From an uncultured Verrucomicrobiae bacterium (lineage in GTDB: Bacteria > Verrucomicrobiota > Verrucomicrobiia > Limisphaerales > JAFGQR01): a stretch of 64,000 bases of DNA. The stretch covers positions 18,213-82,212 of the forward strand of contig CAWBHS010000080.1 of NCBI GenBank assembly GCA_963788655.1, written 5' to 3'. Both the position numbers and the translations under genes were made by a program. Every line of letters starts with the position of its first letter. Within the stretch, counting starts at the first letter, position 1. A model generated the notes under the pieces. The model did not search any database. It was not told the DNA's origin and worked only from the letters and a program-made list of their open reading frames with translations. Below are positions 8,878 to 29,998 of this stretch, piece after piece.

Positions 8878-10938
8878 ATGCGAAGTGTCTTTTTTAAAAC
8901 TGTGGCTTTGATCGTTACCGCGATCGGGCTGGCCGCCAGTCTGCCCTCTGCTTCCGCAGCAACGAGTGGGACCCGATCTTCTCGTGGGACAAATCCTTGG
9001 CAATACAATGATTCCGGAGCGAACTTTGGAACCATCTGGAGAGCGACCGGATACAACGACACTGGTCCTGGCTGGAAGACTGGCACCGGAGGTGTTCGCT
9101 GGGTTCCGGCGAGATGGCGACGACCGCAACCGTTGGCTTAACGGAAACGCGGTCGCCGAGCGCAGGGCCCATCAACGCACCACCATGGCGCGCTATCTGA
9201 CAGACGGCACAACGCAGATCACGACGTATTATTTCCGAACTCATTTCAATTTCCGGTGCAACCGCGCTTCGTGTTTTTGGTCGTGTTCCAACATGTTCTG
9301 ATGACGGGGCCGTCATTGTACCTCAATGGTGTGGAGATGATCCGCTTGCACATGCATGACCGGCACGGTCACCCCCGCCAATTGGCTAATAACGGCGCTG
9401 CGGTGGAAGTCAGCCGAGCGGGGGATGTCACCATCGCCCAACGATGGCGGTCTACTATGAGTATTTGCTAGGCTCGACGAATCTGCATTTTGGCGACAAT
9501 GTGCTGGCGGTCGAAGTGCATGAGCGTAAACGCGACGAGTTCGGACGTGGTCTTTGGCATGGCCTTGGGCTACCGGATCGTGACGCCGCCAACAATCACC
9601 ACGCAACCGGTCAGCGTGGATATTGAACAAGAAATTCCTTTACCCTGAGCGTTGGGGCGACTGGCGAATATCCGTTGTACTACCAATGGCAAAAGGACGA
9701 TGGGACGGGCACCTTTGTGGATGTGGCCGGCGCGGTCAACGCGACTTACTCGATTTCTCAGGCGCTGGCGTATCATGCCGGGCGTTACCGGGTGATCGTT
9801 TCCAATGCCGGTGGCAGTGCCACCAGCGCGGTGGTCCGGGTGAACGTGGTCACCGACAGCAGCGGGACCGCGTATCGTTTCGGCCATCGCCGACCCGGTG
9901 TTTCCCCCTTATCTGGTCGTTGTCCGGTTCAACGAGAACGTCTCATTGGCAACCGCAACGAAGACAACCAACTATATTATTACCGAGATGGCTACAGGCA
10001 ATCGGTGACCGTAAGTAACGTTCAATTGGGGAGTGATTACCGCCCGTTTGAACACGGGCCCCTGGGATCCCACCAAGCAATAGAAGATCACCATCAACAA
10101 CGTGGCCGACAATTTCGCCGCTCACAACCTCATCGCTCCGGACACCAAAGTGGGCATGGCGTTCACCAGCATACAGCCGATCTTTGCCATGAACAAAGAA
10201 TGGTCCTTTTGGCAAGATGGTCCTCTATACATTTATCCCGGGTTGGAAGATTCGTGGAAAACCAATGGCTTGGACAGCAGTAATCCGGATTTGCCCTATG
10301 ATCCCAACACGGGGCACGGCGTTTTCTATTTTGAATACAACGGGCTTCCGAATTTGTGCAATGGCAACTTGGGGACGGTGATCGACAACGGGCCGATGAC
10401 CCACTATTTCACGACGCGTTTTACGGTGGGCACCGTCGATCCCCGGGCCTCGTTTGAACTCCACTCCGTCATCGATGATGGGGCCGTGTTTTATCTGAAT
10501 GGCGACGAGATTGGCCGGTTCAATATGCCAGCGGGACCGGTCGATTATTGGACACCGGCGGCCACCAGCATCGGGGATGCCGAGTGTGTCACGAATGTCT
10601 TTGGAGTGACCAATCTGGTGTCCGGGGAAAACCTGTTGGCTGTCGAGTTGCACCAGATCAATCAAACCACCACCGATGATGTGTTCGGTGGGGAACTGGA
10701 GGCACGTTTGGTTACCTTCTACGATCTGACGAATGACCCGCCGCCCACGCTGAACTTGACGCCCAACCCCGGTGCGGCCAACGACATGGTCCTCTCGTGG
10801 ACCGGTTCGGGTTTTGCGCTGGAATACGCCAACAAGGTCGAAGGACCATGGTTTGAAGCCCAGCCCATGGCGAATCCGTTTGCGACGGCTTCCACCAACG
10901 CAATGCAACGGTTCTGGCGCTTATCCTTGCCACAGTAA
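8878..10938 (+). CDS. Secreted modular protein: two jelly-roll-like repeats flanking Ig-like domains (heavily frameshifted from about 8950 to 10100)
   Basis: Signal peptide MRSVFFKTVALIVTAIGLAASLPSASA; repeated TYYFR/THYFT, YLNGVEM/DDGAVFYLNGDEI, GDNVLAVEVH/GENLLAVELHQ; Ig motif YYQWQK...GRYRVIVSNAGGSATS; C-terminal LSWTG...GPW...RFWRL domain. Confidence 0.7.
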
Positions 10939-13135: not shown

Positions 13136-14290
13136 TCAACCATCATGGACCGAGTCTTGGTTCGCGAACACGTAAACTTGCCGATCAGTCGCCGGCACGA
13201 ACAGATTTCCCCGAGCATGGAATGAAGGCCGGGCCTGAATGGCTCGGGGCGCTTCAAAGATGGGTTGCCCCAATCCGTTCGGCTGAATGCAGTGGATCAT
13301 CCCCAGCGGATCGCCAATAAACACAACTCCACGGTTATCGCACACACCTCCCGCCAGCAAATACTCGCAGCCGGTGGCATAGCGGTAGCGTGTCGAACCA
13401 TCGGGCGCCAAGGCATGAACGAAACCCGCCATGTCCGCCACCACAATGGTGCCGTCGTTCGCGACCGCCGGCGTGGCGCCAACCGCCGCGGAGAATTGGT
13501 ATTTCCACATCAGTTTGGCGCTTGCTGCGGACCAAGCGTGAAGCGCTGCCTCCCGGTCACTGTTGACCACCAAGTAAACGATTTTCCGCCTCGCATCCCA
13601 AACCGGCGCCGCCGCCACCAGCAAACGATTGGCCGGCCGATGTTTCCCCGGCTGTTCGAAGAGGATCGTTTCCTTGCCTTCCGCACTGATGCGGACGCAC
13701 TGCACCCCCTGCGGCCAGACGGTGCGCACGCAATAAACCATTTCATCGTCATCCGCCATGGCACCAGCGGATGGAGAGATTCCAGCGTCCCAGGAATGTG
13801 TTACTTCCCCCGAGCGGGCATCCAGCAGATGGAACCGGCCACCCCAACTACTCAATACGACGGTCTTCTGCCGAGGTAGATACAGCAGATCCGAAAGAAT
13901 GCGCGCATCGCTTTTGGTGGGGATTTCTTTCTTCCAAACCACATTGCCATTGGCCGCGGCCAACGCATAAATCCAACCGGTGTGTGTCCCGACGAACAAG
14001 AGACCGCCGTCAGGATCAATCGCCGGGGTCGCAGAAATGCCTCCTGTCAATCGCTGCTCCCAGATACGCCGGCCATCATCAGTGAACGCCTCCACCCCGC
14101 CGGCCATGTCGGCGACATACGCGCGGCCCTGCGAATCAAAAACCACTGCCGCTTGGACCGCGCCTTGGGCTGGCAATCGCCGGAGAGGTTGGTGGCCCGG
14201 TTGCACTGCGCCGGCAAATAAGCCACGGCGGGAGTTCTCACCGCCACTGGTGGACCATCCGCGCTCAAATTGGGAGTTGGTGTCGGACAT
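13136..14290 (-). CDS. PQQ-binding-like beta-propeller repeat protein
   Basis: Repeats such as ISATPAID...LFVGTHTGWIYAL...GNVVWK and VGATPAVANDGTIVVADMAGFVHAL; ATG (MSDTNS) at 14290. Confidence 0.8.
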   Translation of the reverse strand: MSDTNSQFERGWSTSGGENSRRGLFAGAVQPGHQPLRRLPAQGAVQAAVVFDSQGRAYVADMAGGVEAFTDDGRRIWEQRLTGGISATPAIDPDGGLLFVGTHTGWIYALAAANGNVVWKKEIPTKSDARILSDLLYLPRQKTVVLSSWGGRFHLLDARSGEVTHSWDAGISPSAGAMADDDEMVYCVRTVWPQGVQCVRISAEGKETILFEQPGKHRPANRLLVAAAPVWDARRKIVYLVVNSDREAALHAWSAASAKLMWKYQFSAAVGATPAVANDGTIVVADMAGFVHALAPDGSTRYRYATGCEYLLAGGVCDNRGVVFIGDPLGMIHCIQPNGLGQPIFEAPRAIQARPSFHARGNLFVPATDRQVYVFANQDSVHDG

Positions 14291-14301
14291 GAATTCGGTG
14301 C

Positions 14302-15537
14302 TCACGCATGAATACGCTGGAAGGTTGGTTGGTATTCGAACCGCGCGGACTTGATATCCACTCCGGCCACTTCGAGATTCTGGAGGCGATTTTCCCCGAG
14401 CCCCTTGCGGCGCGCCAGCGCCAGGTAATTGGTGCCGTTGGCAAATGGATGCGTGCGATCCGGAGCTTCGGGATTGAAACCCATCACTGCGGCGGCCACC
14501 GAGTCGGTGCTGACCGCATTGCGCCCCGCCAGCAGCAACCCGGGCCGCGTGACCGACACCATGGAACCATTCCACCAGCCTTCGGCGGTTTGAATCACGC
14601 TGATCGCATCGATCACCACCAAGTCGATGGGAAACGCGGCGTTCAAATCGACGATAAACCGCGGCACATTGAAACCGTGGTCGCCCTCGACTGAGTTGCC
14701 GGTGAAGTAATCCACCGAGGTGAGCGGTTTGCGGGTGCAGGCATGCATCGTCTTGCCCCGGTAATCAACGGCGTTTTCGTCGGGCTCGTTCTTCAAATCA
14801 TCGCCGTAAAGGCTGCTGGGCGGAATGCCGAACAGATTCTTCATCCCCCCGGTGATCCCGCCAGAAACGTGACTTTTCAATTTCGTCAGCGAGATGAGCA
14901 CGTCCGTATCGACATAGCTGCGATTGACCTCCCACGCCGTGGCCAGTTCGGCGCCGGAAGCGACTTTGACCGTGGCATAATTCGCATGCTCCCCTCGGTT
15001 GCGGGTGTTCACGAATCGCGCCCGACCGGCCATCACTGCGTTGAACTTCTTGAGATCAAAGCCGTAGCCCAGGAACGCTTCGGCATCCAATGCCCGGAAT
15101 GGCAACTGATCGCAAAACGTCACGCGCCGCGCGCCGCAATCTACCAGCAAACTGCCCAGCGCCATTGCGACTTGCGGATGCACCGTTACCGTCAGCCACA
15201 AGGGCACCCCGTAAACATCCTCGGCCGACGTGTTCACCAGATTGGTCTTGATGGTCACGTGCTTGTTTTTCACCAACGGACGAATGTCGCCCAAGTCCTC
15301 CAGAAGTTGGGCCAATGTCCGCCGGACTGCGGCAAAGTCATAGCGTTTGCAGAGGCCAATAGCCGACAAGGCGCGCGGGACCGCGATGGAGGGTTCTGCT
15401 GCGGACGCAGTGTCGGACAGCGACTTCGCCAGAGGTAGAAGGGCCGCAACCGCCGTGCCCTTCAGGAAGCTGCGGCGCGATAGCACTCCACCGGGGCACT
15501 TTGGGGCGGCAGCGAAATCAAGTCGGTGCGAATTCAT
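14302..15537 (-). CDS. Tat-exported DUF362 domain protein
   Basis: SRRSFLK Tat motif; VTIKTNLV, TVHPQV, LTKLKSH, GGMKNLFG, VSTDSVAAAVMG. Confidence 0.85.
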   Translation of the reverse strand: MNSHRLDFAAAPKCPGGVLSRRSFLKGTAVAALLPLAKSLSDTASAAEPSIAVPRALSAIGLCKRYDFAAVRRTLAQLLEDLGDIRPLVKNKHVTIKTNLVNTSAEDVYGVPLWLTVTVHPQVAMALGSLLVDCGARRVTFCDQLPFRALDAEAFLGYGFDLKKFNAVMAGRARFVNTRNRGEHANYATVKVASGAELATAWEVNRSYVDTDVLISLTKLKSHVSGGITGGMKNLFGIPPSSLYGDDLKNEPDENAVDYRGKTMHACTRKPLTSVDYFTGNSVEGDHGFNVPRFIVDLNAAFPIDLVVIDAISVIQTAEGWWNGSMVSVTRPGLLLAGRNAVSTDSVAAAVMGFNPEAPDRTHPFANGTNYLALARRKGLGENRLQNLEVAGVDIKSARFEYQPTFQRIHA

Positions 15538-16780: not shown

Positions 16781-18200
16781 ATGAACCACCAGCCCACCTC
16801 CGAATCCCACGGCAGTCCGGCTTACCTGACCGCTATATGCTTGATTGCTGCCTTGGGCGGATTGCTCTTTGGCTACGACACCGCGGTCATTGCCGGCGCA
16901 ATTGGATTTTTGAAAACGCACTTTCAACTCAGTGCCGCGATGGAGGGCTGGGCGGCTTCCTGCACGCTGCTGGGTTGTATTCTGGGCGTGTCCATCGCGG
17001 GGGTGTTCAGCGATTGGCTCGGCCGCAAGAAGACGCTGGTTTTGGCCGGCGGGCTCTTTCTCGTTTCCGCGGTGGGCACCGCCCTGCCGCAAGCGCTTTG
17101 GCAGTTTGTGACGTTTCGCATTCTGGCGGGGGTCGGCGTCGGCGTGGCGTCCCTGGCTTCGCCAATGTATATCGCGGAAGTCACCCCGGCGCGCATTCGA
17201 GGCCGAATGGTGTCGGTGAACCAGTTCGCGATCATCTCGGGAATGCTGGTCGTCTATTTCGTCAATTATTTCATCGCCCGCCACGGTACTGGGGAATGGA
17301 ACGTCACCACCGGCTGGCGCTGGATGTTCGCCTCCGGAATCCTGCCGTCGGCCCTGTTTCTGGCCTTACTGGTTTTGGCTCCGGAAAGCCCGCGCTGGCT
17401 CATCAAACAGAACCGGACCGAGCAGGCCCTGGCGATTCTCAGCCCGGGTGGACGGCTCCCGTTTTGCCCAAAACGAAGCCGTGGCTATCCGCGAGAGCAC
17501 GGCGGATGATCGCAATCCCATGGCACGTGGATTCCCGTCACGAATGCTCCCCGTTTTTGTTATTGGGGTAGCCTTGGCCATCCTGCAGCAAGTCACCGGG
17601 ATCAATGTCTTTCTCTACTACGCCCCGACCATCTTCGAGAGACTGGGCACGGGCGTGAACGGTGCGTTGCTGGCGCAAGTGGCGGTAGGCGTCGTCATGT
17701 TGGTGTTTACCGTCGTGGCGATTTGGACGGTGGATCACCTCGGGCGCAAACCGTTGATGATAGCCGGGGCGGCGGGTATGGGCGCGTTTCTCCTGGCCAT
17801 GGGAGTGGCCATGCAGGTGCAGGTCGCCACCGCCACGTTACCGATCATTCTCATTCTGGGATACATCGCGTGCTTTGCCTTGTCGGTTGGGCCGGTGACC
17901 TGGGTCATTCTGACCGAGATTTTTCCGACGAGTATTCGCGGACGCGCCCTCTCGATTGCGACCTTCGGCCTGTGGGCGGCGAACTATGTCGTCTCCCAAA
18001 CCTTTCCCATGATGCGCGATGATCCCGTGCTGATCGAGCGCTTCCACCACGGGTTTCCCTTTTATATTTACGGCGCCTTTTGCGTCGTGCTGGTGTTGGT
18101 GGTCTGGTTCGGCGTGCCGGAAACCAAAGGCAAATCGCTCGAGGAAATCGAGGCGTTTTGGAGTCGGGGCGTGCGTCCAGCGCCAGCGGTTTTGCCGTAA
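16781..18200 (+). CDS. Sugar porter family MFS transporter (XylE/GalP-like); frameshift near 17445
   Basis: GGLLFGYDTAVI, DWLGRKK, PMYIAEVTP, PESPRWL, QQVTGINVFLYY, EIFPTSIRG, PETKGKSLEEI. Confidence 0.93.
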
Positions 18201-18531: not shown

Positions 18532-19008
18532 TCAAGGATTTTTGAGGATCTTCTGTTTCGCGGCTTCGTACTCCTGGTCGTTGATGATGCCGTCCTGGTG
18601 CAATTGGTGGAGACGCCGCAACCGTTCGTCGAACGGAAGTTGTTCTTTGGGCGGTTCGCCGCCGAAGTTAATGCCCGCTTCATCCAGGGCATCTTTGACT
18701 ACGCCGCCGGTCATCCGCGACCAGGGTTCAACGTCTTTGCGGGTTTCCTCCGGATCGAGCTTGATCCCAGAGCCGGCCACGCCCATGCGGCCGACGCGCA
18801 TCAGGATGCCACCGCCAATCATCAGCCCCATGCCGATGATCGCTCGCGCGGCCATCGAACGGGTGCGCTGTTGGAATTCGCTGAAGTCGCCGAAATGCAG
18901 GGCGCCCGAAATAAAGACGGAGCCAAATGACAGGAATCCGATCACGGCCAGAGCCATGCCCAAGTAATAAGTGCCTTTTCGTTCAGGCGATATTTGTCTT
19001 CGAATCAT
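18532..19008 (-). CDS. Two-TM membrane protein with C-terminal SHOCT domain
   Basis: Two hydrophobic segments; ERLRRLHQLHQDGIINDQEYEAAKQKIL fits the SHOCT pattern. Confidence 0.8.
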   Translation of the reverse strand: MIRRQISPERKGTYYLGMALAVIGFLSFGSVFISGALHFGDFSEFQQRTRSMAARAIIGMGLMIGGGILMRVGRMGVAGSGIKLDPEETRKDVEPWSRMTGGVVKDALDEAGINFGGEPPKEQLPFDERLRRLHQLHQDGIINDQEYEAAKQKILKNP

Positions 19009-19069
19009 ACGCTTCAATAAGCCAACACCGGCTCAAACTGGTTTGTTGCCAGGAACAGTCAAGCCGCCC

Positions 19070-19185
19070 GTAGGACAGCCGTCCCGGTTGTCCCGAACTT
19101 CCAAAGCGGCCCCGTTAGTCAACGCACGTGTTGCGAAAAGCCAACGCATTCAAGCCATCCTGGACAGGCGAGACGCCTGTCCTAC
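19070..19185. repeat. Family A REP doublet overlapping the stop codon of the SBP lipoprotein gene
   Basis: GTAGGACAGCCGTCCCGGTTGTCC...GGACAGGCGAGACGCCTGTCCTAC; CTA at 19182-19184 is the TAG stop on the minus strand. Confidence 0.85.
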
Positions 19186-20276
19186 TTTTCTTGTACCATC
19201 TTGATGTAAGTCGGATCAAATCGCAGGGCGGCGTCTGCTGCTGCCGCTTTGGCGCCATAGCCGACTTTGGGTGCCGAACCAGTGATCTCGTGGCTGACAC
19301 AGAAGGTCACGACTTTCTTCATGATGTTGGGTAGTTCGGGACCGGTCAGCACCGCCAGGCCGTCCTTCGGCGTGCTGTAGAACTTGGTTTGCTGCACGAC
19401 CTTTTTCATGGACGCCAGGTCGAGATGGGAGAATTTTTCGCCCAACGCTACGAGGGTCTTATCCGCGGTCGCCGGTGCGGCCAGGCGCTGGCAGAGTGTG
19501 TAGTACGTGTCGATCACGGCGCAGGCAAAATTCTCGCCGCCGGGCTTGTTCAGGGAATCCTGGGCGACGACGACACAATCAATGATTTCGTTCGGGATCT
19601 TGGTTGAGTCGAACAGCACTTTAACGTCGGGACGTTTGTTGAGCGTATCCAGCACAAACGGATTCCAGACGACAATGGCTTCAATGTCCTTATCCTTTTG
19701 TTGCATCGCCATGGCGGCGGCGGCGGGGTCCATGTTGCTGAACTGGTAATCGGATTCTTTCTCCCCCAGGATTTCCAGGTTCCGCACGAAGCAGTATTCG
19801 GAAACACTCTTCGCCAGGCCATGGACCTTCTTGCCCTTGAGCTGCTTCACGTCTGTGACGGTGTTCGGCACCAGGCAGGCATCCGCACCGTAACTGGTGG
19901 AGGTGGGCAGGATGACGACCGACGGCCGGGTGAGCGCCGGATTGAGCGCGTCCATGTCGGTGATGCACACCGCGTCGCACTGGGCGGCGCCATACATCGA
20001 GATGCACGGATCATACTCGGCCTCCTTGAGCACGATATCGACGTTCCACTTCTTTTCGATGGGCCCAAGCTGGCCTTCGCGGCCATCGATGAGTTGATCG
20101 ACATGCGCCACGCCGAACGTGCTCCAGGAGGGATACTCACTCCAGGCCAGCGAGAAACTGGGAGCGTTCCCCGCCGGCGTGGACGAGCCGGTTTCTTGTT
20201 TGCTGCAGCCGGTGAAAGCCAGGCCGGCCAGGGCCAGCGTGACGAACGAAGCGATGAATGAACTTGTTTTTTTCAT
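19182..20276 (-). CDS. Periplasmic binding protein type II (NMT1/SsuA/urea-like) lipoprotein
   Basis: Lipobox FTG-C; LAWSEYPSW, STSYGADA, AIVVWNPF, FDSTKIPNEIIDCVVV. Confidence 0.8.
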   Translation of the reverse strand: MKKTSSFIASFVTLALAGLAFTGCSKQETGSSTPAGNAPSFSLAWSEYPSWSTFGVAHVDQLIDGREGQLGPIEKKWNVDIVLKEAEYDPCISMYGAAQCDAVCITDMDALNPALTRPSVVILPTSTSYGADACLVPNTVTDVKQLKGKKVHGLAKSVSEYCFVRNLEILGEKESDYQFSNMDPAAAAMAMQQKDKDIEAIVVWNPFVLDTLNKRPDVKVLFDSTKIPNEIIDCVVVAQDSLNKPGGENFACAVIDTYYTLCQRLAAPATADKTLVALGEKFSHLDLASMKKVVQQTKFYSTPKDGLAVLTGPELPNIMKKVVTFCVSHEITGSAPKVGYGAKAAAADAALRFDPTYIKMVQEK

Positions 20277-20302
20277 GGGATCAAATGTTTGGGTGTTGGC
20301 GT

Positions 20303-21133
20303 TTATTCCGGCAGTGCGGAACTCTTGTCCGGTGAAGCTGGCTGCGCCGGGGTTTGGGATTCGGCTTGTTGGGCCAGGCCGATCAATTGATCAAATTCAT
20401 TCGAGGCCTGGCTCTTGCGGGCGTATTCGAGAAACTCGGCTTCCTGCGCCTTGGTGTCCGTGCCGGCCATTTCCTTGGAGACGCGGGCTTCGGCGTGAAT
20501 CTCCTGGCGCAATTGCCGCAACTGCTGGAGTTCCTCCGCCGAACCATCCTGGGCAATGCCGGACAAGGTGTCGGCCAGGTCGCGTTCCTGCTTGGCGGTG
20601 ATGATGTCGGCCACGGCGTCAGCCGCCTCGGATTTGATTTTATCAACGTCGCGCAAGAGTTGCTGCAACTGCACCTTGTGATTCGCAATGGTCTTGGCGT
20701 ATTCGTTGATGTCCTTTTCGAGGCTGCCGATGTGGTCTTGTTTCTCGGACAAGGTCGAAGAGAAGTCGTTGTAGGCTGCGAGGCATTTCTTGTAGTCCTC
20801 GGTCTGGTGGATCGCCTCCAGGCTCTTGCCGGTCTTCTGCAGATCGACCACGGTTTGTTTGGCTTTGGCCAGCGCGCCGGCTTTCAGGCGCTCCAGGTTG
20901 TTGACCTCTTCGGTCAGGGCTTTGACCTTGGCCATCTTGTTTTCCTGCTGGGCAATCAAGCCGGCGACCGCTTGTTTGTAGGTTTGGATTTGCGTGATCT
21001 TGTCCCGGATGATCGCGTCGTATTTGGCGCGAATGACATGCGGATTGGTGTCGAGCACGCGCCGGGCGGAATCAATCTGACCGGTCAGCATGTATCCAAT
21101 GGCTTTGACCCAACGAGCTAGAGCGCGAAACAT
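20303..21133 (-). CDS. PspA/IM30-like coiled-coil protein
   Basis: Amphipathic N-terminus MFRALARWVKAIG, NP kink, about 270 aa of continuous heptad-rich helix, acidic helical C-terminus. Confidence 0.7.
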   Translation of the reverse strand: MFRALARWVKAIGYMLTGQIDSARRVLDTNPHVIRAKYDAIIRDKITQIQTYKQAVAGLIAQQENKMAKVKALTEEVNNLERLKAGALAKAKQTVVDLQKTGKSLEAIHQTEDYKKCLAAYNDFSSTLSEKQDHIGSLEKDINEYAKTIANHKVQLQQLLRDVDKIKSEAADAVADIITAKQERDLADTLSGIAQDGSAEELQQLRQLRQEIHAEARVSKEMAGTDTKAQEAEFLEYARKSQASNEFDQLIGLAQQAESQTPAQPASPDKSSALPE

Positions 21134-21143
21134 AGGTATTCCT

Positions 21144-21917
21144 TCAGGTTTGGGGTTTATCGATGATCGGTGGTAGTTGCGACATCACGGAGGTTTCTTT
21201 TACAAAATTATTGACCCGCGCTTCAACTGCTTTAGCAACGGCCAGACTCTGGTCCAGTTCGTCGCGGAGCTGCGTCAACTGGGCGTTGGCGCTTTCTCCG
21301 GCACCCATGCGTTGCAACGCCACCAGGGTATCGCTCAATTGCTTGATGCTGCCCTGCACGTCGGCAATGAGTTTTTCGCGCTGCTCGATAATCGGCTGGC
21401 GCGCCGCCGGGGTGTGCAGTTGCTGGGCGATCTGCCACAATTGATCGGTTTGTTTCAACGAATCGACGCATTGGTCAAACAATAGTCCAGTGCGGGACTG
21501 GATTTCGATCGCGTTGCCGGTATTGAACCGCAAATCGTGGTCGGCGTAATCGGCAAAAGCCTGCACCAATGCCCGCATGTCGCGCAAGGCGGTTTCGGGA
21601 CGCGGATCCTGGTCGGCAACGGTGAGGCGGCGGTCCAGTTGGTCGAGGGCTTGTTGCCGCTCTTTTTGTTTGGACTCCTCAGCTTCGCGCAGAACCCGTT
21701 CGGCCACCTTGTCGCCGCGAACGAGCAAGCGCGTGACGAAGGTCCCGGCGGCTACCAACACGCCCGCCAACCCGGCGAACAACCCGATGCCCGGCTGCCA
21801 TTCCAAAGCCCAACTGGCGGTCAGCGTCGTCATGCCCAGCAGAAACGGAAGCACCGTGCCGGGACTGCCCAGCAGGCGCAGGAAGACTTTTCGTTTGAGT
21901 GTCGGTTCGTCCAGCAT
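21144..21917 (-). CDS. Two-TM protein with helical-bundle/coiled-coil body (XpaC-like topology), uncharacterised
   Basis: Two N-terminal hydrophobic helices followed by long charged heptad segments. Confidence 0.6.
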   Translation of the reverse strand: MLDEPTLKRKVFLRLLGSPGTVLPFLLGMTTLTASWALEWQPGIGLFAGLAGVLVAAGTFVTRLLVRGDKVAERVLREAEESKQKERQQALDQLDRRLTVADQDPRPETALRDMRALVQAFADYADHDLRFNTGNAIEIQSRTGLLFDQCVDSLKQTDQLWQIAQQLHTPAARQPIIEQREKLIADVQGSIKQLSDTLVALQRMGAGESANAQLTQLRDELDQSLAVAKAVEARVNNFVKETSVMSQLPPIIDKPQT

Positions 21918-22033
21918 GGCTGGTTACGGGTCAGGGAGTATGGGCTAAGAGCATGCGCGTGAACAGCAAACAATGGGCTGAGCGGAATGGCATAAGGCAT
22001 AAGGCAAATGGCAAAGGTCATAGGTGCTGAAAC

Positions 22034-23611
22034 TCAATACGGCACTTGCCCGACCACGAACAATACCGACTGCGCTTCGCCGCCGGCCACGGTGCTCGGG
22101 GCGGCTTCGGTGCGGATGCGGTCCGCTGATAATCCTTGCCCGATCAGGTATTGCGCCGCAGCGTCCGCGCGGGCCTGGGCCAACTGGCGATTGGCCTCGG
22201 GATCGCCTTCGGCGCGGGCCTGCCCGATCACCCGCAGATAGAATTCCGGAAAGGACTGCAACCGTTTGCTCAACGCTTGCAAGTCGCGCTCGCTTTGGTC
22301 GCTCAGTTTGGCGGAAGCGCGTTGAAAAGTGATGGGCTCGACGCGCAATTCCCCGACCGGACGCAGGCTGCTCCATTGCTGCGGCGTCAACGGCCCCAGC
22401 GCCCTGTCCGTATGCACCTGTTCCTGGTCGCCGATGTTGCCCACGCCGGGAATGAGGTTCAGGCCCTTTCCCGGATGAAAATTGGCGGCTTTCATTTCCG
22501 CCAGGATTTGGCTGTAAAAGAGGGTAGTGTGCTGGCCATTTAACGGATCACTGGGCAATGCCTGCGTCTTCACCAGCACGTCGATGATATTGCCGATAAT
22601 GTCCTCCAAGTGCTGCTGGTCGTTGGCCGCCGCGTCCTGGGCGAGGCCAAAATGGGCGTAGTTTTCCAACGTGTTTTTCCATTGAATCCCTTTTACGACC
22701 TGCCGGGCTTGGGTTTCGTCCAGGGCATCGGCTCCGGCGCCACCCGCGTCGGCGCGCACAAGTTTGACCAGACCGTCGGGCGATTGGCTGTAAGCGTACG
22801 CCGCGCGGCAGTGCGCTTCCACCACGGCCTTGACGAGGTCCGGATGATCGCGCAGGAATTGTCGTTCCGCCACGAGCACGTCCACGATGAAGCCTTTGAG
22901 TTTGGAACTGTCTATGAGCACCTGGGCGTCCGGAATTTGAAGGGCCTTGGACACATACGGCTCCCATAGCACGTAGGCCCGTTTCTCGGCGGGATTGGCG
23001 GAACGGAATTGGTTGTAAACGTCCCGCGCCCCATCCGCTTTCACCCACCATTGGTCCGGCAGCCGGGGCAGGTTGAAATGGGCAAGCACCACCCGCGCGA
23101 GGAATTCGCTGGGCGAATTCGGCGTGAGCACCAGCCGCGCCGCCGGATCATTCAAATCCTGCAGGCTGGCCACGGCGGTTTTGCGGGAGACAATGGCGTC
23201 ACCGCCCTTCGTTTCGTCGATCACCAGCACAATGCTGCCGGGGAATTCGCCGGCCTTGGCCCCCGACGTGATCAGCGAATCAACGGTAAAGACCGCCATC
23301 TGCACCTTGCCGGATTGGAGAGCTTTCACGCGGGCCGAGTAATCGCCGCTGTCATCCTGGAAGTTCAACTTGATCTGTTGGGTCTTGAGATCCTGCCGGA
23401 CCGCGTCCGAACGCAGAATGGCGTAGCCCGAGAAGGAATCCACCGCGACCGTGATTTCATGTTGGTATTGGCTGGTGGAAGCGGTCTGGCGTTTCAGCTT
23501 TTCGGAGAGATACGGATGGATCAGCAGTTTATAGCCCACCCCCAGCGCCGCCAAAATGACGCACCATATCACTGCCGCCATCAGGCATCCTTTGGCGCGG
23601 CGTTCACTCAT
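22034..23611 (-). CDS. Membrane-anchored PBP-II substrate-binding domain fused to a C-terminal OmpA-like domain
   Basis: N-terminal TM; DSFSGY, DETKGGDAIV, VLWEPYVSKA, IVDVLVA; ITFQRASAKLS...ANRQLAQARADAAAQYLIGQGLSADRI; ATGA overlap with the vWA stop. Confidence 0.85.
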   Translation of the reverse strand: MSERRAKGCLMAAVIWCVILAALGVGYKLLIHPYLSEKLKRQTASTSQYQHEITVAVDSFSGYAILRSDAVRQDLKTQQIKLNFQDDSGDYSARVKALQSGKVQMAVFTVDSLITSGAKAGEFPGSIVLVIDETKGGDAIVSRKTAVASLQDLNDPAARLVLTPNSPSEFLARVVLAHFNLPRLPDQWWVKADGARDVYNQFRSANPAEKRAYVLWEPYVSKALQIPDAQVLIDSSKLKGFIVDVLVAERQFLRDHPDLVKAVVEAHCRAAYAYSQSPDGLVKLVRADAGGAGADALDETQARQVVKGIQWKNTLENYAHFGLAQDAAANDQQHLEDIIGNIIDVLVKTQALPSDPLNGQHTTLFYSQILAEMKAANFHPGKGLNLIPGVGNIGDQEQVHTDRALGPLTPQQWSSLRPVGELRVEPITFQRASAKLSDQSERDLQALSKRLQSFPEFYLRVIGQARAEGDPEANRQLAQARADAAAQYLIGQGLSADRIRTEAAPSTVAGGEAQSVLFVVGQVPY

Positions 23612-24588
23612 CGGCGGCCTCTTCTTTGGTTGGCTTTGACGATCAGGAAGACGACGGCGATGATGCCAATGAACACGATGACGCCCACGACGAACAATCC
23701 CACCAGGATGGGCAACCACACAACTTTCGCCCGTGGCGAATGACTTTGCGATCCATGCGACTGCATGGGCGGGGCTACCCGATTTTGCGCGGGCACTGGA
23801 CGGGGAACCGCCGCGTTTCTGATCGGTGGGCTGGAGCCGATCGGCTCATTGCCGGAAGTCGAGAGCGATTGGATCATGGCGGAAGCCACTTCCGTCGGGA
23901 TCGGCGCGAGCAGATCGAATGCTTCGGCTTGCGCCACATCCGTAGCGGTACCGCCCACCTCGGCAAACACCTCTCGAATGGCGCGCTTCAAGGATTCTGG
24001 ATCATCCGCCCGCCGATAGGAATGCACGCGGGTCGCCAGCGTGTGCGCCTGGCTCATGGCCACGCCGATGACATCCATGGTGATGCCCCGCGCCATGACT
24101 TCGGGCGTGTAACGGTTCACCAGATTTTTGTCATTCGCTTCACCATCCGTGACAATCAGTAACCGGTAAGTGCCATAACCAAACTGGGCCTTCCGCTCGG
24201 CCAGCAACCGGTCGGCGCCTTGCTTGATATAGGCTCCCAGCGGGGTGCTGGAGCCGGGCTGGATGCGATCCAGCGCCTGCATCATCACCGCATCATTGCG
24301 CGGACCCAACGGATACACCCAATCGTTCTTCAAGTTGGACGCGCTGAATACCAGCAATCCCACGTGCGTGGACTCGGGAACCGTTTGCATCACCGCTTTG
24401 ATCGCGGACTTGGCGGCGTCCATCTTTTTAGTGCGCTTGTCTCGCATCATTTGTCCCATGGAACCGGAAGCATCCAGGACGATGACGACATTGTCGGCGA
24501 ATTGCTGGGCGGGTGCGGTAGTGGGGAACAGCATCAGTGCCAACGCTAAACCGCACAAACCGGCAACAAGGCGTTTTCGATTTCGCAT
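23608..24588 (-). CDS. Exported von Willebrand factor A domain protein with C-terminal TM anchor
   Basis: Signal peptide MRNRKRLVAGLCGLALALMLFPTTAPA; MIDAS DASGSM, STPL, VTDGE; Pro-rich linker; TM plus basic tail. Confidence 0.88.
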   Translation of the reverse strand: MRNRKRLVAGLCGLALALMLFPTTAPAQQFADNVVIVLDASGSMGQMMRDKRTKKMDAAKSAIKAVMQTVPESTHVGLLVFSASNLKNDWVYPLGPRNDAVMMQALDRIQPGSSTPLGAYIKQGADRLLAERKAQFGYGTYRLLIVTDGEANDKNLVNRYTPEVMARGITMDVIGVAMSQAHTLATRVHSYRRADDPESLKRAIREVFAEVGGTATDVAQAEAFDLLAPIPTEVASAMIQSLSTSGNEPIGSSPPIRNAAVPRPVPAQNRVAPPMQSHGSQSHSPRAKVVWLPILVGLFVVGVIVFIGIIAVVFLIVKANQRRGRR

Positions 24589-24617
24589 CAGCCAGAGATT
24601 CCCTGCTCCTTTGATTA

Positions 24618-24687
24618 GTAGCAGCCGACGTGAGTCGGCTCTGGCTTTCTTTCCCGAAAGAGTCAGCGGATTTACATCCGCTGCTGC
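24618..24687. repeat. Family D-like GTAG palindrome between the SBP-OmpA and vWA genes
   Basis: GTAGCAGCCGACGTGAGTCGGCTC...CAGCGGATTTACATCCGCTGCTGC. Confidence 0.65.
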
Positions 24688-24751
24688 GAAGTTTATGGGG
24701 AGGTGCGGCTCCACCAGTAAATGCTTTGTATGCGGCATAGCGCCCTCCGGG

Positions 24752-26594
24752 TTAGAAGTCGAAGTCGGCGGCTTTGGTGGCTTCGGCGGCCACCCGGACG
24801 ACGCGGAATTCCACGCGCATGTTTTGCTTGGCTTCGTCCATGTTGCGCGGCTTGGCGACGAACGGTTCACGAATGCCCACGCCCACCGGCTGGATCTGGC
24901 TTTTATCGAAATTGAGCCCTTTGGACTTCGCGTATTCCACGATGGAATCGCGCACCGCTTCGGCGCGCAATCGCGACAAATTCAGTGCCGCCTGCATGGT
25001 TTCGCGCGGGTTGATATCCGGCACCCCGTCGAAGGCGCCCGCATCGATGTACTGGGTGAGTTGGTCGAGGGCGCTCAGGTCGAGCGGCTTGCCGTTGAGC
25101 GAATAAGAGTAATTCCCGCTCGAACCCACCCGCTTGAGCACGCCTTTTTTCATACCGGCGCGAACCAAATCCAGCAGCGTTTTGGTGGGGTCGGCGTGCC
25201 CGCGAATGGCGATCGCGGCATTGCCAAACTTGTCGGCGGTTTCCACCACGCGCTGGAACTCGGCGCCGTATTGCACCGCACTGAACGTCTCCTGGTTGGG
25301 CTCAAAGTTGATGGTGAACGAAATGATCGTGCGCGAATCCAGCGCGCCGCCCGAACTCAGCGCCTCGATCTCACTCTGCACCGCCTCGGCGCGGAAGCGT
25401 TCTCCGCGCTCAAATTTGGTCTTGGTGAGGTAACTCAGGAACATTGGCGATTGATAATCCAGGCCCGACGGAAACAAGCCCATCCGTTCCTTCGCGTAGC
25501 CGCGGCTGGTGGCCAGGTCGAGCGCGGATTTTTGGAAGGCCTCGAATCCGTGCAAATTGCCGGTCTGCGTGAAGAACGTCACGTTGCCCGGGTAACCCAC
25601 AAACGTGCAGTCTGAGATCAACCCGTGCGCATCCTCCAACGTCGGGATGGTTTGCTTGCCATAGATCGTTTGGGTTAATTCCAGCATCGCCTTGTAGGGC
25701 GCCGAACCGGAAGCTTCGTATTGTTTCTTCAAGTCGATAATTTCTTCGCAGGCCTTCAAGTAGCCGGCCACGAATTTGGTAATCAGCGGCTTGTTGGCGT
25801 CGTAGAAATCCTTGCGGCAGACATACACGTCCGCGATGGAACGGCTCAGTTCGGCCGTCGAAACCAGCACCCGCGCGTCCTTGACCGTGCCCTCGGCGCC
25901 CGAACCCGTGTTGTGCAGGCCGCCGCACAAACTGATCATGTCCGGCGTGATGGCGAAGCAGGCGTCAATGTTCGTTTGTTTGCGGAACATTTCCGGCGCG
26001 GAATCGGGCGAGGCGGTCAGGTCCTTGGCCCAGACGACTTTGATGTCGTTCCAACTGAGCTTGGCGGTTTGCAGAATGTCATTCAGCATCCCGACATGCG
26101 GGCCGCCTTGCTGGAGGACCACGGTTTTGCCTTTCAGGTCGGCCATGGTTTTGATGTGCCCCCGCGCGACCATGTGATCGCCGGCCGACCAGGTCAGTTG
26201 CAGGATCACGACGCCTTTGGTCCGCGGGTCCGATCCAATCGCTTCGGAAGCCAGACCCATCATTCGGAACGTGCCGCGCAGGAACGGCGTTTTGCCCGCC
26301 CGGTAATCCCGCACTTGTTGGACGAAATCATCGCCGGCCGTCAGACGGAGGTTGAGTCCCTGTTTTTGGAAAATAGTATTGGGCTGGGTCGCGAGGCCGC
26401 CGTTCGCGTAGAACGTGGCCATGTCTCCCCCCCAGGTGATGTAGGGCACCTGCAAGGGCGCTGTTTGCGTGACCGGTCCCACCGGCGCGTTGCCCACGAG
26501 ATCAAGAAAGCGTTTTTCCTGCGCCCGGCTGGCTACGGCCACCGAGAGCAGTCCGAGCGTGACAATGAACAGAAGATGATTTCGTCGGTTTCAT
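24752..26594 (-). CDS. Exported PBP-II substrate-binding domain fused to an OmpA-like domain with a large insertion; one extra A just after the start codon
   Basis: Removing one A from ATGAAAC gives signal peptide MNRRNHLLFIVTLGLLSVAVASRA; YITWGGD, TWSAGDHMV, IADVYVCRKDF; INFEPNQ, RGHAD, LSRLRAEAV, NMRVEF. Confidence 0.83.
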
Positions 26595-27089
26595 GGCAGT
26601 GTCTTTCGTTGGCAAACAATTCATGTTATTCAGTCGAGCTATCTCGCGTCCATTAACAACGAGTCCTTATGGGCGCCAGCCGGATCCCGCAGGATTTCCC
26701 GGCCGTGCCAGCATCGTTGCAATGAGTCCGGTCCACAGGCACTTGTAGTAATGCAACCCGCCGTGCCGGGCAAGTACACATTCCCCGGCACTTTGTAATA
26801 TTTTGACAACGTGATGAAGCATTCGTCGAGCTTTGCCATAGAATTGCACGGCGCGGTGGTTTATACCTTCGCTCCATGATCGCTTGTTTGAAACGGCTCA
26901 GGCTGCCGCTCTGCTTGGTGAAAAGACTGCGCTTTGCCGTAGCGCAGATTTGCAATCTGCTGCCGCTGCCGCGCTGGTGCGCTTTAGCGCGCCACGGGTA
27001 TTGCCGAGTTGGATTCGGCACTGGAGCTTGGGCTATTGTCAGTCGGCTCGTTCAATTGGACTTCTTAATTGGTGCGGGGCTCGCGCTAA

Positions 27090-27186
27090 CGCGGCAGCGT
27101 CGTGGAGTGCGGCAGTCCTCTGCCGCTTTCGAACGCCGCGCCCCGTCGAAAGCGGCAGAGGACTGCCGCACTCCAAAACCTGGCGG
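27090..27186. repeat. Family B-prime palindrome (GGAGTGCGGCAGTCCTCTGCCGCTTT / AAAGCGGCAGAGGACTGCCGCACTCC); second copy at 34909-35007
   Basis: Near-perfect inverted arms at both loci. Confidence 0.85.
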
Positions 27187-27202
27187 CTACTCGCATGGCT
27201 CA

Positions 27203-29998
27203 ATGGACAGGCTTGCGCATTCCTTGGCTGTTGCCTGGCTGATGATTCTCGCAACTGGCGGCGTTTCGGCCACCGGCCAAGCAGCGGCGCCAATTGGCAA
27301 CCGCGTTCTCGCGGCCTGGGAATTCAATCAGGCGGGCAACCTGCAAGGTTGGCAGCCCAACGGGCACTTGACCGAGGTGAAGGTGGCCGATGGCGCGCTC
27401 TCCTGCCGGGCGGTGGGCTCCGATCCGATTCTGGAATTGCGTCCGCTGATCGATCTGACGGCGTCGCCCTGGCAGTTCCTCGAAGTCCGCTTGAAAGCCA
27501 GTCGCGACGGCACCGCGGAATTCTTCTGGAGCAACACGTCCACCGGCCGCTATGGCGGATTCAGCCAGGAGAAAACCACGCGTTTCAACGTGACCGGCGA
27601 CGGCCAGTGGCACACGTATCGATTGATGCCCTTCTGGCAGGCGGAAAAGAAAATCGTTCGGCTGCGGTTCGATGTGTTCGACGGCGCCAGGTTTGACGTA
27701 GATTATTTTCGCATCCTCCAGCAAGACATGCCGCGGGTAGTGGATCGAGCGGATTTTGATTTTGCCGACTCCGCTCAGAATTGGCAGGCGCTTGAAGGCG
27801 CTTCATTGGATGCCGGTTCGCAGGGGGTGTCCATTTCGACAAGCACCGCGGAAGGATTTGTTTTCGCACCGCCCGTGCGACTGTGGGCGGACGAGGAGAA
27901 TTTTGTTTCGTTGCGCCTGGCGGTTGACCGCGGAAGCCGGGCCACGTTGTTTTTCGCTACTGCCGAGCAGTCCAGTCTGAAGAGCCTGACGTTCCCCATC
28001 AAGGCCGGCGCCGGGGAGCGCACCTACAATCTCGATATGCTGGCGGCACCGGGATGGAAAGGTCACGTCATTGCCTTGGGACTGCGTCCGAGCGATGCCG
28101 ACGGGGCAACTGGCCGATTGCGCTGGTTGAAGGTCAGCGATGCACCGCAGGGGGCACCGCAATTGCAGGTCAAATCCTTTGTGCTGGCGGATGCTCTGCC
28201 GCGCGCCGGACGGTCTGCGACATTGGCAGCGATTGTTTCCAACACCGGCGGCATCATGGCCACGAACATCCAGGCCCGACTGGAACTGCCGTCTGGCCTC
28301 AAGCTGTCGGATAACGATGCGGATGCGAAGTCCATTGCGGCGTTGGGCTTTGGCGACGAGGTTCCGTTGAATTGGCGCGTGATGGCGGCGGCTCCGTTAA
28401 CCAACACTGTCCGACTGTCGCTTTCATCGCCCAATGCCGAAGCTGTCGAGACCACTGCGTCGGTGGATTTCCTGCCCGCGCTCAAAATTGAGCCGGCCGA
28501 ATACGTGCCCGAGTGCAAACCGGTGCGCGGTCCGTATGAGGTGGGAGTTTATTACTTTCCCGGTTGGAAGACCGCCAGCCAATGGCGCCCATCCGGCGGT
28601 TCCCGGAACGCAAACCGGTGTTGGGCTGGTATCGCGAAGGGGATCCGGAAGTGGCCGATTGGCACATCAAATGGGCGGTCGAGCACGGCATCACGTTCTT
28701 TGCCTACGACTGGTACTGGAACCAGGGCGCGCGACAGCTTGAGCACGCGCTGCACGACGGTTACTTCCACGCGCGCTACCGGCACTTGCTCAAGTTTTGC
28801 CTGCTCTGGGCCAATCACAATCCGCCCGGCTCTTCGTCGCGAGAGGATTGTCTGGCGGTGACGCGATATTGGATCGAGAACTATTTTCGCCGCCCCGAGC
28901 ATTTGACCATCGACGGCAAACCGGTGGTCATCATTTTCAGTCCCTACCGGCTGACCTCGGACCTGGTAAGCGCCAACGTAAAGGCGGCATTTGAAGCGAT
29001 GCGGGCGGAATGTCGGCAAGCAGGTTTGAAAGGGCTTTACCTGATCGCCTGTGTCGGCGATGCGGGCGGGGCTCGTCAGGCGGCGGCTGAAGGTTATGAT
29101 TCGGTGACGGCCTACAATTGGCCCGGCCTGGGAAAAACGGGCGAGGGCATGTATGCGCCGTATTCGACGTTGATCGAGGGCTATCGTCGGAACTGGGAAC
29201 ACATCCTGGAACAGAGTCCCATTCCGCTGGTGCCGCTGCCCGTGAGCGGTGGTTGGGACAGCCGGCCCTGGCATGGTGAGAACAACCTGGTCCGCTTCGG
29301 TCGGACACCGGAATTGTTCAAACAGCATTTGTCGGATGCCCGCCAGTTTCTGGAGACGTTCCAAGCCTCTAGCGTCAGCGCCGAAAATGGTATTGGTCGA
29401 AGCCTGGAACGAATGGGGGAAGGTTCGTATATCGAGCCGCACAAGGAATATGGATTCGGCTATCTTGACGCCATTCGCAATGTGTTCAGCTCGGCCCCGC
29501 AAGCGCACACCGATCTTGCGCCTGCGGACGTGGGACTGGGTCCTGTACGATTTGCCGCCCGTAGTGTATCAGACCGCGTGGGATTTCGCGTCGAATGACG
29601 AAGGTTGGAGCAACACGATGGGCCTGGCGGACGTTCAGTCGAAGGCGGGCGTGCTGGCCGGACGCGCGGTTTCAAATGATCCGGCGTTTTTCGGACCGCC
29701 GATGCAGGCCCGGGCGAGCGAGTTCAACGCCGTCAGGATTCGCCTGCGATTGGAGAAAACCAGCGGCTCGGCATTCACTGACTCCGCCCAGTTGTTCTGG
29801 CGCACGAGCCGTCTGGCGGAAAGCGAAGCCACCAGCGAGCACTTCGCCGTCACTGGCGATGGTCAATGGCACGACTACACCGTGGTGGTGGCGAAGAACC
29901 GCCGTTGGCGGGGTGTCATCACCCGTTTGCGGATCGATCCGTGTAACCGACCGGGGGTGAGGGTGGAGATTGGTTCCGTCAAACTGGTGAGACAGTAA
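27203..29998 (+). CDS. Secreted multi-domain glycoside hydrolase, GH99-like/WbsX catalytic domain with repeated beta-sandwich modules (about three frameshifts)
   Basis: VGVYYFPGW, RKPVLGWY, ADWHIKWAVEHGITFFAYDWYW, FCLLWANHN, EAWNEW + GEGSYIEP; repeated DGQWHTY/DGQWHDY...RLRFD/RLRIDP modules; start position uncertain. Confidence 0.75.

Follow-up and report, generated by a model that had tools for sequence, protein, structure and literature searches.

The closest described counterpart of the locus reported here is an operon type that Ravi et al. (mSystems 2024, PMC11237479) predicted from comparative genomics, in which PspA is encoded with an 'inactive-Classical-AAA+Classical-AAA' protein. Some of these operons are extended by genes for an ABC ATPase, a permease, a SIG+PBPB+OmpA protein and a SIG+TM+Snf7 protein, one example being OGG56892.1 from Candidatus Handelsmanbacteria, and the authors proposed ATP-dependent membrane remodelling tied to solute transport. 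Systems that combine vps4 with ESCRT-III are placed by Makarova et al. 2024 (PMC10936438) in archaea and eukaryotes alone, and a 2025 review states that a Vps4-like ATPase appears absent in bacteria (PMC7619361). Our literature search found no experimental study of such a PspA-AAA operon, and further papers could exist. Here we analyse a 64,000-nucleotide stretch of a contig from an uncultured Verrucomicrobiae bacterium (GCA_963788655.1, CAWBHS010000080.1, positions 18,213 to 82,212), referred to below as the window. With a probability that we put at roughly 60%, window positions 19182-26594 hold the front six genes (g1 to g6) of a nine-gene Verrucomicrobiota cassette, which is split in this genome and in which a PspA-like polymer would be turned over by the cassette's own AAA ATPase. 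Coordinates of all features are collected in Table 1.

We used tblastn with the window proteins and candidate downstream proteins to map 23 related loci (16 found by scanning species-representative genomes, seven by searching genomes across the phylum), and assigned the neighbouring open reading frames (ORFs) with Pfam. The arrangement lies far beyond chance; the order g1 to g6 is kept in other genomes at 37-83% protein identity. After g6 the relatives continue with a BPD_transp_1 permease gene, an ABC_tran ATPase gene and a gene for an AAA ATPase of about 610 residues (PF00004), and 10 of the 23 loci have the complete set of nine in this order. Four contigs stop too soon to show the AAA gene; the remaining 19 loci all carry it, and the permease and ABC ATPase genes are found in 17 of the 20 that extend far enough to show them. 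The genome analysed here encodes the same three proteins in the same order as a separate operon on contig C72, downstream of a divergent oxidoreductase gene. These three are 62-66% identical to their counterparts in locus L011, comparable to the 65-70% found for g5 and g6. A genus-mate (G001) shows the same split, with g1 to g6 at a contig end and the other three genes, including an intact ABC ATPase gene, on a 38-kb contig where unrelated sequence extends over 10 kb upstream of them. The 6+3 split of the cassette in this genus is new here.

Comparison of the module variants among these loci shows that g5 and the AAA gene are the invariant core, and that a wall-tether module (g1, g2 and g3) and an importer module of the NitT/TauT type (g6, the permease and the ABC ATPase) are optional. 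In a minimal variant g5 is followed directly by the AAA gene (L007 and L020). L043 has g1 to g5 and the AAA gene without the importer, while L017, L041 and L042 have g5, g6, the importer and the AAA gene without g1 to g3; the importer module never occurs without g5 and the AAA gene among the loci compared. The g5 family is found in 8 of 401 phylum genomes sampled, and strong matches to the AAA ATPase's N-terminal domain (E <= 1e-130) fall in exactly the same eight. Among order-level relatives the cassette is present in 4 of 41.

This cassette is of the operon type predicted in silico by Ravi et al., a likeness drawn by matching architecture. Common to both are a PspA protein, a two-domain AAA protein with a dead N-terminal domain, an ABC ATPase, a permease, a secreted fusion of a substrate-binding protein (SBP) domain to an OmpA domain, and a membrane-anchored helical protein adjoining PspA. 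The five architectures PspA, inactive-AAA/AAA, ABC ATPase, permease and SIG+PBPB+OmpA are all represented in the cassette, spread over two contigs in this genome. The cassette differs in gene order and in the split within this genus, and it adds a von Willebrand factor A (vWA) protein, a second SBP-OmpA protein with a transmembrane (TM) anchor, and a separate SBP. The term 'vwa' does not occur in the main text or supplementary file 1 of PMC11237479.

The preliminary description of this DNA, made from the sequence alone, had reported seven co-oriented minus-strand genes (g1 to g7) between a divergent glycosidase and a convergent sugar porter. All seven ORFs are present in that orientation, the domains claimed for them hold by Pfam and NCBIfam or, for g5, by family profile and model, and the flanking genes are as described: a major facilitator superfamily (MFS) sugar porter on one side and, by Pfam, a WbsX/GH99-like gene on the other. 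The g2 and g3 genes overlap in an ATGA, as had been stated, g4 and g5 are 10 nt apart, and g5 and g6 are separated by 26 nt. Its larger claim, that the run is an envelope system, stands insofar as g1 to g6 form one conserved envelope-spanning unit and fails insofar as the run is incomplete and the AAA partner had been missed. The 164-nt gap between g6 and g7 holds a hairpin at the very site where the loci of relatives go on into the permease gene. No T-run follows this hairpin on the minus strand, which makes it weak evidence for a transcript end; it possibly marks the 3' end of a g1-g6 transcript in this genome, or it may mark a rearrangement junction.

Four otherwise conserved genes have frame breaks, apparently of a single base: both flanking genes (the MFS porter gene is split into two ORFs), g1 in its signal peptide, and the ABC ATPase gene on C72. 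That similar breaks recur in the MFS, WbsX-like and ABC ATPase genes points to assembly indel errors rather than pseudogenes.

The central protein of the window, g5, is to judge by its family profile and model a divergent PspA/Vipp1 relative with an amphipathic N-terminal (alpha0-type) helix. Searches with the single sequence were uninformative (PF04012, PspA_IM30: E 0.03, 14.4 bits against a cut-off of 33.9; phmmer against the PDB: no match), and we therefore used a profile of the family, which counts 1162 of the candidates scored from a 90%-clustered collection (E <= 1e-3) and 489 representative clusters in a 50%-clustered library. A profile of 70 diverse members placed Vipp1/PspA first among PDB entries (E 2.8e-8), with a colinear alignment over query residues 39-96 and 132-250, and 13 of the 70 members match PF04012 individually (best E 3.4e-7). 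The AlphaFold model (predicted local distance difference test score, pLDDT, 79.7) has a long helical hairpin (31-100 and 112-193) followed by a helix at 199-245. Foldseek ranked Vipp1 structures one to five (best E 2.6e-4, probability 1.00), with modest TM-scores of 0.3-0.5. The assignment of this product to PspA/ESCRT-III had been set beforehand as a test that could refute the earlier reading, and it survived. Among 258 windows the hydrophobic moment peaks at residues 1-18 (0.60), and residues 2-19 have a net charge of +3, within a predicted N-terminal helix at 2-28; the family means are 0.47 and +3.1.

A variable and poorly predicted tail closes the g5 family and ends in LPE. This ending is present in 20 of 22 g5 proteins from the loci, and [LI]P[EDQ] lies in the last six residues of 33 of the 70 diverse members, compared with 0.09% of internal windows. 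The conserved C-terminal LPE tail, read from these alignments, is new here. We found no canonical PspA elsewhere in the genome by PF04012 at E <= 0.01, which in an 86%-complete assembly is not proof of absence.

The AAA ATPase has a single Pfam domain, PF00004 (E 1.6e-16, residues 356-475). A classical AAA domain makes up the C-terminal half, with Cdc48/VAT/p97 as the best solved relatives (E 1.8e-27), and NCBIfam matches include CDC48 (E 7e-19) and CdvC (E 1.6e-11). Every one of the 19 aligned AAA sequences keeps Walker A (G.IG.GK[TS]), a W[FY]G pore loop, Walker B (DEADTQ) and the RRPGR arginine motif, so that on these motifs the C-terminal domain is apparently catalytically competent and substrate-threading. 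In the N-terminal 330 residues LTGNIxDLF stands where Walker A would be expected, and this part weakly resembles the AAA domains of Vps4 and spastin (E 0.018-0.5). It would accordingly be a degenerate AAA-like domain, which fits the 'inactive AAA + AAA' of the literature. Pfam found no MIT domain in the protein, and this, together with the Cdc48/VAT relatives, indicates that it is not a Vps4 orthologue.

In five more genomes of the phylum, ORFs of about 610-670 residues match the AAA N-terminal domain less strongly (E 1e-13 to 1e-17), and these genomes have no gene of the g5 family. The ORFs may belong to a sister family of two-domain AAA ATPases that has another partner.

The gene directly upstream of g5 in 18 loci, g4, encodes two hydrophobic helices and has no significant Pfam match. 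Its AlphaFold model (pLDDT 73.8) shows a TM hairpin and a helical bundle (helices 19-38, 42-101, 105-128, 133-166, 170-206 and 210-246). Given that g4 keeps its place 10 nt upstream of g5, the simplest reading is that it is a membrane adaptor for g5, and we presume this role. Two identities were tried without finding support. For an ESCRT-III/Snf7 protein, the profile search against the PDB gave prefoldin as best match (E 0.039), hhalign against the g5 family gave a probability of 4%, Foldseek of the model returned nothing at E <= 0.001, and a wide VIA-align search returned designed or generic helical bundles only, the top Z of 12.3 being inside the range stated by that tool for helical models. 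For PspM (Rv2743c), an Atlas feature search that named it as the nearest cluster (score 0.88) gave no more than a lead; the 25 most frequent of the 114 Pfam families matched by 60 g4 relatives do not include PF25587, and the window's g4 did not return it at E up to 10. Relative to the SIG+TM+Snf7 protein of Ravi et al., g4 is membrane-anchored, helical and in the right place, but shows no ESCRT-III similarity by profile or fold.

The wall-tether module begins with g1, which is kept in 16 related loci at 56-83% identity. Its SBP domain is of the NMT1 type (Pfam E 1.7e-7), and the g1 profile has weak SsuA matches only among PDB entries. The OmpA reading derives from sub-threshold Pfam and NCBIfam matches (Pfam OmpA E 0.005, 17.5 bits, cut-off 27.2) together with motifs visible in the family consensus, GHADP...NLSRxRAEAV...NMRVEFRV. 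The preliminary description had called this gene an SBP-OmpA protein with a signal peptide; the SBP domain and the OmpA-like motifs are there, but the ATG at 26594 is one base off the frame of the ORF. The hydrophobic signal sequence itself is encoded in the ORF frame, before the first start codon of that frame, so the signal peptide is readable only across an apparent 1-nt indel. Homologues of g1 have clear N-terminal signal peptides that end right before QEKRF.

In each of the 16 loci with a g1 gene, g2 adjoins both g1 and g3; it encodes a vWA protein (Pfam E 1.2e-12). The signal, intact metal ion-dependent adhesion site (MIDAS) and C-terminal TM segment ascribed to it were all seen: MIDAS-type residues DASGSM (DxSxS), GSSTPLG and VTDGE, a signal-like N-terminus starting MRNRKRL at 24588, and a hydrophobic C-terminal stretch. 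The g3 protein, whose ATG overlaps the g2 TGA, has an N-terminal TM segment and matches OmpA (E 1.2e-12) and NMT1 (E 3.2e-4) in Pfam and TIGR03427 (E 2.9e-14). Aligned by hhalign, the SBP domains of g1 and g3 appear to be remote paralogues (E 4.5e-5, probability 69%). Tethered to the wall, they could act as scaffolds or sensors and not as shuttling receptors.

The third binding protein, g6, is followed directly by the permease and ABC ATPase genes in 17 related loci and is the receptor of the ABC importer. It matches TIGR03427 at E 1.3e-47, below the family cut-off, and TauA in the PDB at E 2e-4. The permease matches TauC (E 3.7e-19) and SaoP (E 2.6e-19), and the ABC ATPase matches NtrCD/TauB-like models (E 1e-46 to 1e-48). 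The importer parts thus belong to the Tau/Ssu/Nrt group, with all scores far below the equivalog cut-offs. An ORF of about 138 codons lies between g6 and the permease gene in L011, L013, L015 and L018. The copies are 51-60% identical to that of L011, have no Pfam or NCBIfam match, and are absent from the window's part of the genome.

The evidence above supports the anatomy of the mechanism that we favour, and each of its dynamic steps is one that we infer. With its amphipathic N-terminal helix g5 would attach to the inner membrane and polymerise on it, probably with the 2TM protein g4 as docking site. The AAA ATPase would engage g5, plausibly by the flexible tail ending in LPE, and would thread or extract g5 subunits, so that the polymer would be turned over at the expense of ATP, as ESCRT-III is by Vps4. 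The OmpA-like domains of g1 and g3, with the MIDAS-bearing g2, would fix the membrane site to peptidoglycan, and the importer, perhaps with the tethered SBP domains, would link the machine to a small solute of the kind taken by taurine/sulfonate/nitrate-type binding proteins.

Several known systems share parts with the cassette. As in the ESCRT-III-Vps4 systems of archaea and eukaryotes (e.g. CdvB/CdvC), an ESCRT-III-superfamily protein is encoded next to a classical-clade AAA protein with an aromatic pore loop, and the flexible g5 tail with its short conserved end motif recalls the MIT-interacting motif (MIM) tails of ESCRT-III. The cassette differs in that its AAA protein has no MIT domain, has two domains instead of one and is closer to Cdc48/VAT than to CdvC, that the partner is PspA/Vipp1-like and not Snf7-like, and that periplasmic and transporter modules are added. 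The Psp and Lia systems (E. coli PspF-ABC, B. subtilis LiaIH, M. tuberculosis ClgR-PspA-PspM(Rv2743c)-Rv2742c) likewise place a PspA effector beside a small membrane protein, and the 2TM protein g4 is positionally like PspM or LiaI. By Pfam, none of PspB, PspC, PspF, LiaI/LiaF, Toastrack or ClgR is found in the nine genes or in the scanned flanks. The NitT/TauT importers (TauABC, SsuABC, NrtABCD) are the families that g6, the permease and the ABC ATPase match, but the cassette has two more SBP-type domains fused to OmpA-like wall anchors. Makarova et al. 2024 (PMC10936438) describe archaeal 'Meth_adaptin' ESCRT loci with a ProX substrate-binding protein, so that there too an ESCRT-III/AAA unit is genomically linked to an ABC solute-binding protein; the SBP class and the domain of life differ and there is no wall anchor, which makes this an analogy only.

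Several observations weigh against a cassette built around a PspA-like polymer and its AAA ATPase. In this genome the ABC ATPase frame is broken and the cassette is split, and the local copy might be decaying; against decay, the three other frame breaks near the window point to assembly indels. As the AAA ATPase lacks an MIT domain and finds its best solved relatives in Cdc48/VAT, the analogy to Vps4 can be functional only. Neither profile, hhalign nor fold comparison detects any similarity of g4 to ESCRT-III/Snf7 or to g5, and the LPE tail that would offer a handle to the AAA protein is missing in about half of the diverse g5 family members. Since the modules also occur separately, the wall-tether and importer modules may be dispensable add-ons.

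One explanation, which we consider unlikely but better placed than the other alternatives, is that the cassette is primarily a NitT/TauT-type uptake system with extra wall-anchored receptors, and that the PspA-like protein and the AAA ATPase are generic stress or chaperone accessories that only protect or assemble the surrounding membrane. Three SBP-type domains, a permease and an ATPase would account for five of the nine genes. PspA proteins are also described as classically stabilising stressed membranes (PMC7619361), and Ravi et al. suggest chaperone-like assembly roles (PMC11237479). It is the importer, however, that is dispensable: g5 and the AAA gene occur without it in three loci, whereas no locus has the importer module without g5 and the AAA gene. 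Across classes the AAA protein is 50-60% identical, comparable to or higher than the permease at 39-62%.

A bolder version of the favoured mechanism, which we regard as improbable as a whole, would make the cassette an envelope-spanning bacterial counterpart of ESCRT-III/Vps4: a PspA-like polymer on the cytoplasmic face with its own AAA unfoldase, acting as a solute-gated endocytosis-like or membrane-sorting device in Planctomycetes-Verrucomicrobia-Chlamydiae (PVC) bacteria. The polymer would be coupled mechanically through g4, g3, g2 and g1 to peptidoglycan and to ligand-loaded domains, and binding of a periplasmic solute or cargo would trigger inner-membrane invagination, vesicle formation or local repair at that site. 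If true, such a solute-gated machine would contradict the statement that bacteria lack an ATPase-driven ESCRT-III cycle.

We give little credence to the view that three independent units, a wall-tether/vWA unit, a PspA-AAA unit and an ABC importer, stand side by side because they share the ancestry of a genomic island, without joint function. It would explain why the modules combine differently among loci, why they could be unlinked in this genus with neither part lost, and why mobile-element genes lie in or near some copies (L006 and L011). But the gene order is the same across classes at 37-63% identity, the junctions are tight or overlapping from g2/g3 to g5/g6, and both genomes of the genus retain both halves.

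More doubtful still is the reading of the preliminary description, a complete and self-contained seven-gene sensor or scaffold without a transporter, in which a PspA-like effector, together with a SHOCT protein, receives signals from three binding domains. Within the window there is indeed no permease or ATPase gene between the flanking genes, and g1 and g3, whose SBP domains are tethered, could hardly carry ligand across to a permease. Across homologues, which is the comparison that the same description had put forward as decisive, the cognate permease and ABC ATPase pair after g6 is the normal state and is encoded by this genome on C72, so the transporter-less reading is refuted on its own terms; it had also overlooked the AAA partner. 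The SHOCT gene, g7, is lost to it as well. The protein does have two TM segments and a SHOCT domain (Pfam E 6.4e-8), but tblastn at E <= 1e-6 found no homologue in any of the 23 related loci, and there is none in the 533 nt after g6 at the G001 contig end. It is an unrelated neighbour and not a member of the system.

An anti-phage or other defence island around a phage-shock-type protein is hardly credible: the patchy distribution and the toxin-antitoxin and HNH genes inserted in one copy would suit it, but PADLOC gave only generic coiled-coil, ABC and AAA cross-matches and no system-specific model, and the nine genes include no nuclease or other effector-type domain.

The locus is therefore half of an already predicted operon type and not a transporter-less novelty. 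The strict co-occurrence of g5 and the AAA gene makes a bacterial ATP-driven ESCRT-III cycle directly testable with two soluble proteins, and the natural variants (minimal pair, wall tether, importer, split) separate core from accessory genes and suggest clean genetic designs.

Table 1. Positions of the genes and other features discussed. Plain numbers are window positions; positions on other contigs or loci are preceded by their name.
Feature	Position	Strand	Description
g1	ORF 24752-26542 (to 26594 with the out-of-frame ATG)	-	secreted protein, NMT1/SsuA-type SBP domain and divergent OmpA-like domain
g2	23608-24588 (longest ORF reaches 24870)	-	periplasmic vWA protein, signal peptide, MIDAS, C-terminal TM anchor
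g3	22034-23611	-	N-terminal TM anchor, periplasmic NMT1-type SBP domain, C-terminal OmpA
g4	21144-21917	-	2TM hairpin, then cytoplasmic all-helical domain
g5	20303-21133	-	divergent PspA/Vipp1-like protein (ESCRT-III superfamily)
g6	19182-20276	-	TauA/SsuA/TIGR03427-like SBP, lipoprotein-type signal (..FTGC)
Hairpin	19162-19182	-	9-bp, perfect, GC-rich, directly after g6 stop codon
g7	18532-19017	-	2TM-SHOCT protein, neighbour outside the conserved cassette
ABC permease	G000:C72:26386-27174	-	BPD_transp_1, TauC/SsuC-like
ABC ATPase	G000:C72:25453-26360	-	ABC_tran, frame broken
AAA ATPase	G000:C72:23526-25340	-	two-domain, about 609 residues, PF00004
Frame break	16781-18200		MFS sugar porter, gene split into two ORFs
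Frame break	26542-26594		g1 signal peptide
Frame break	26876-29598		WbsX/GH99-like gene
Frame break	L033 (G000:C72), ~9980-10020		ABC ATPase on contig C72
Weaker AAA N-domain match	G064:C16:56979-57485
Weaker AAA N-domain match	G139:C5:400691-401203
Weaker AAA N-domain match	G217:C1:2633344-2633850
Weaker AAA N-domain match	G102:C2:17657-18148
Weaker AAA N-domain match	G327:C52:11930-12430
Inserted genes	L006:10850-13062 and 14226-15066		PemK/MazF-type toxin gene; HNH endonuclease gene
ORF of about 138 codons	L011:12032-12448		between g6 and the permease gene
Integrase gene	L011:2724-3764		phage-type

Two of the related loci carry genes of mobile-element type. In L006 a gene for a PemK/MazF-type toxin lies between g5 and g6, and a gene for an HNH endonuclease between g6 and the permease gene. 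In L011 a gene for a phage-type integrase is found some 0.9 kb upstream of g1. The integrase, taken with the patchy distribution in the phylum, hints at horizontal mobility of the cassette.

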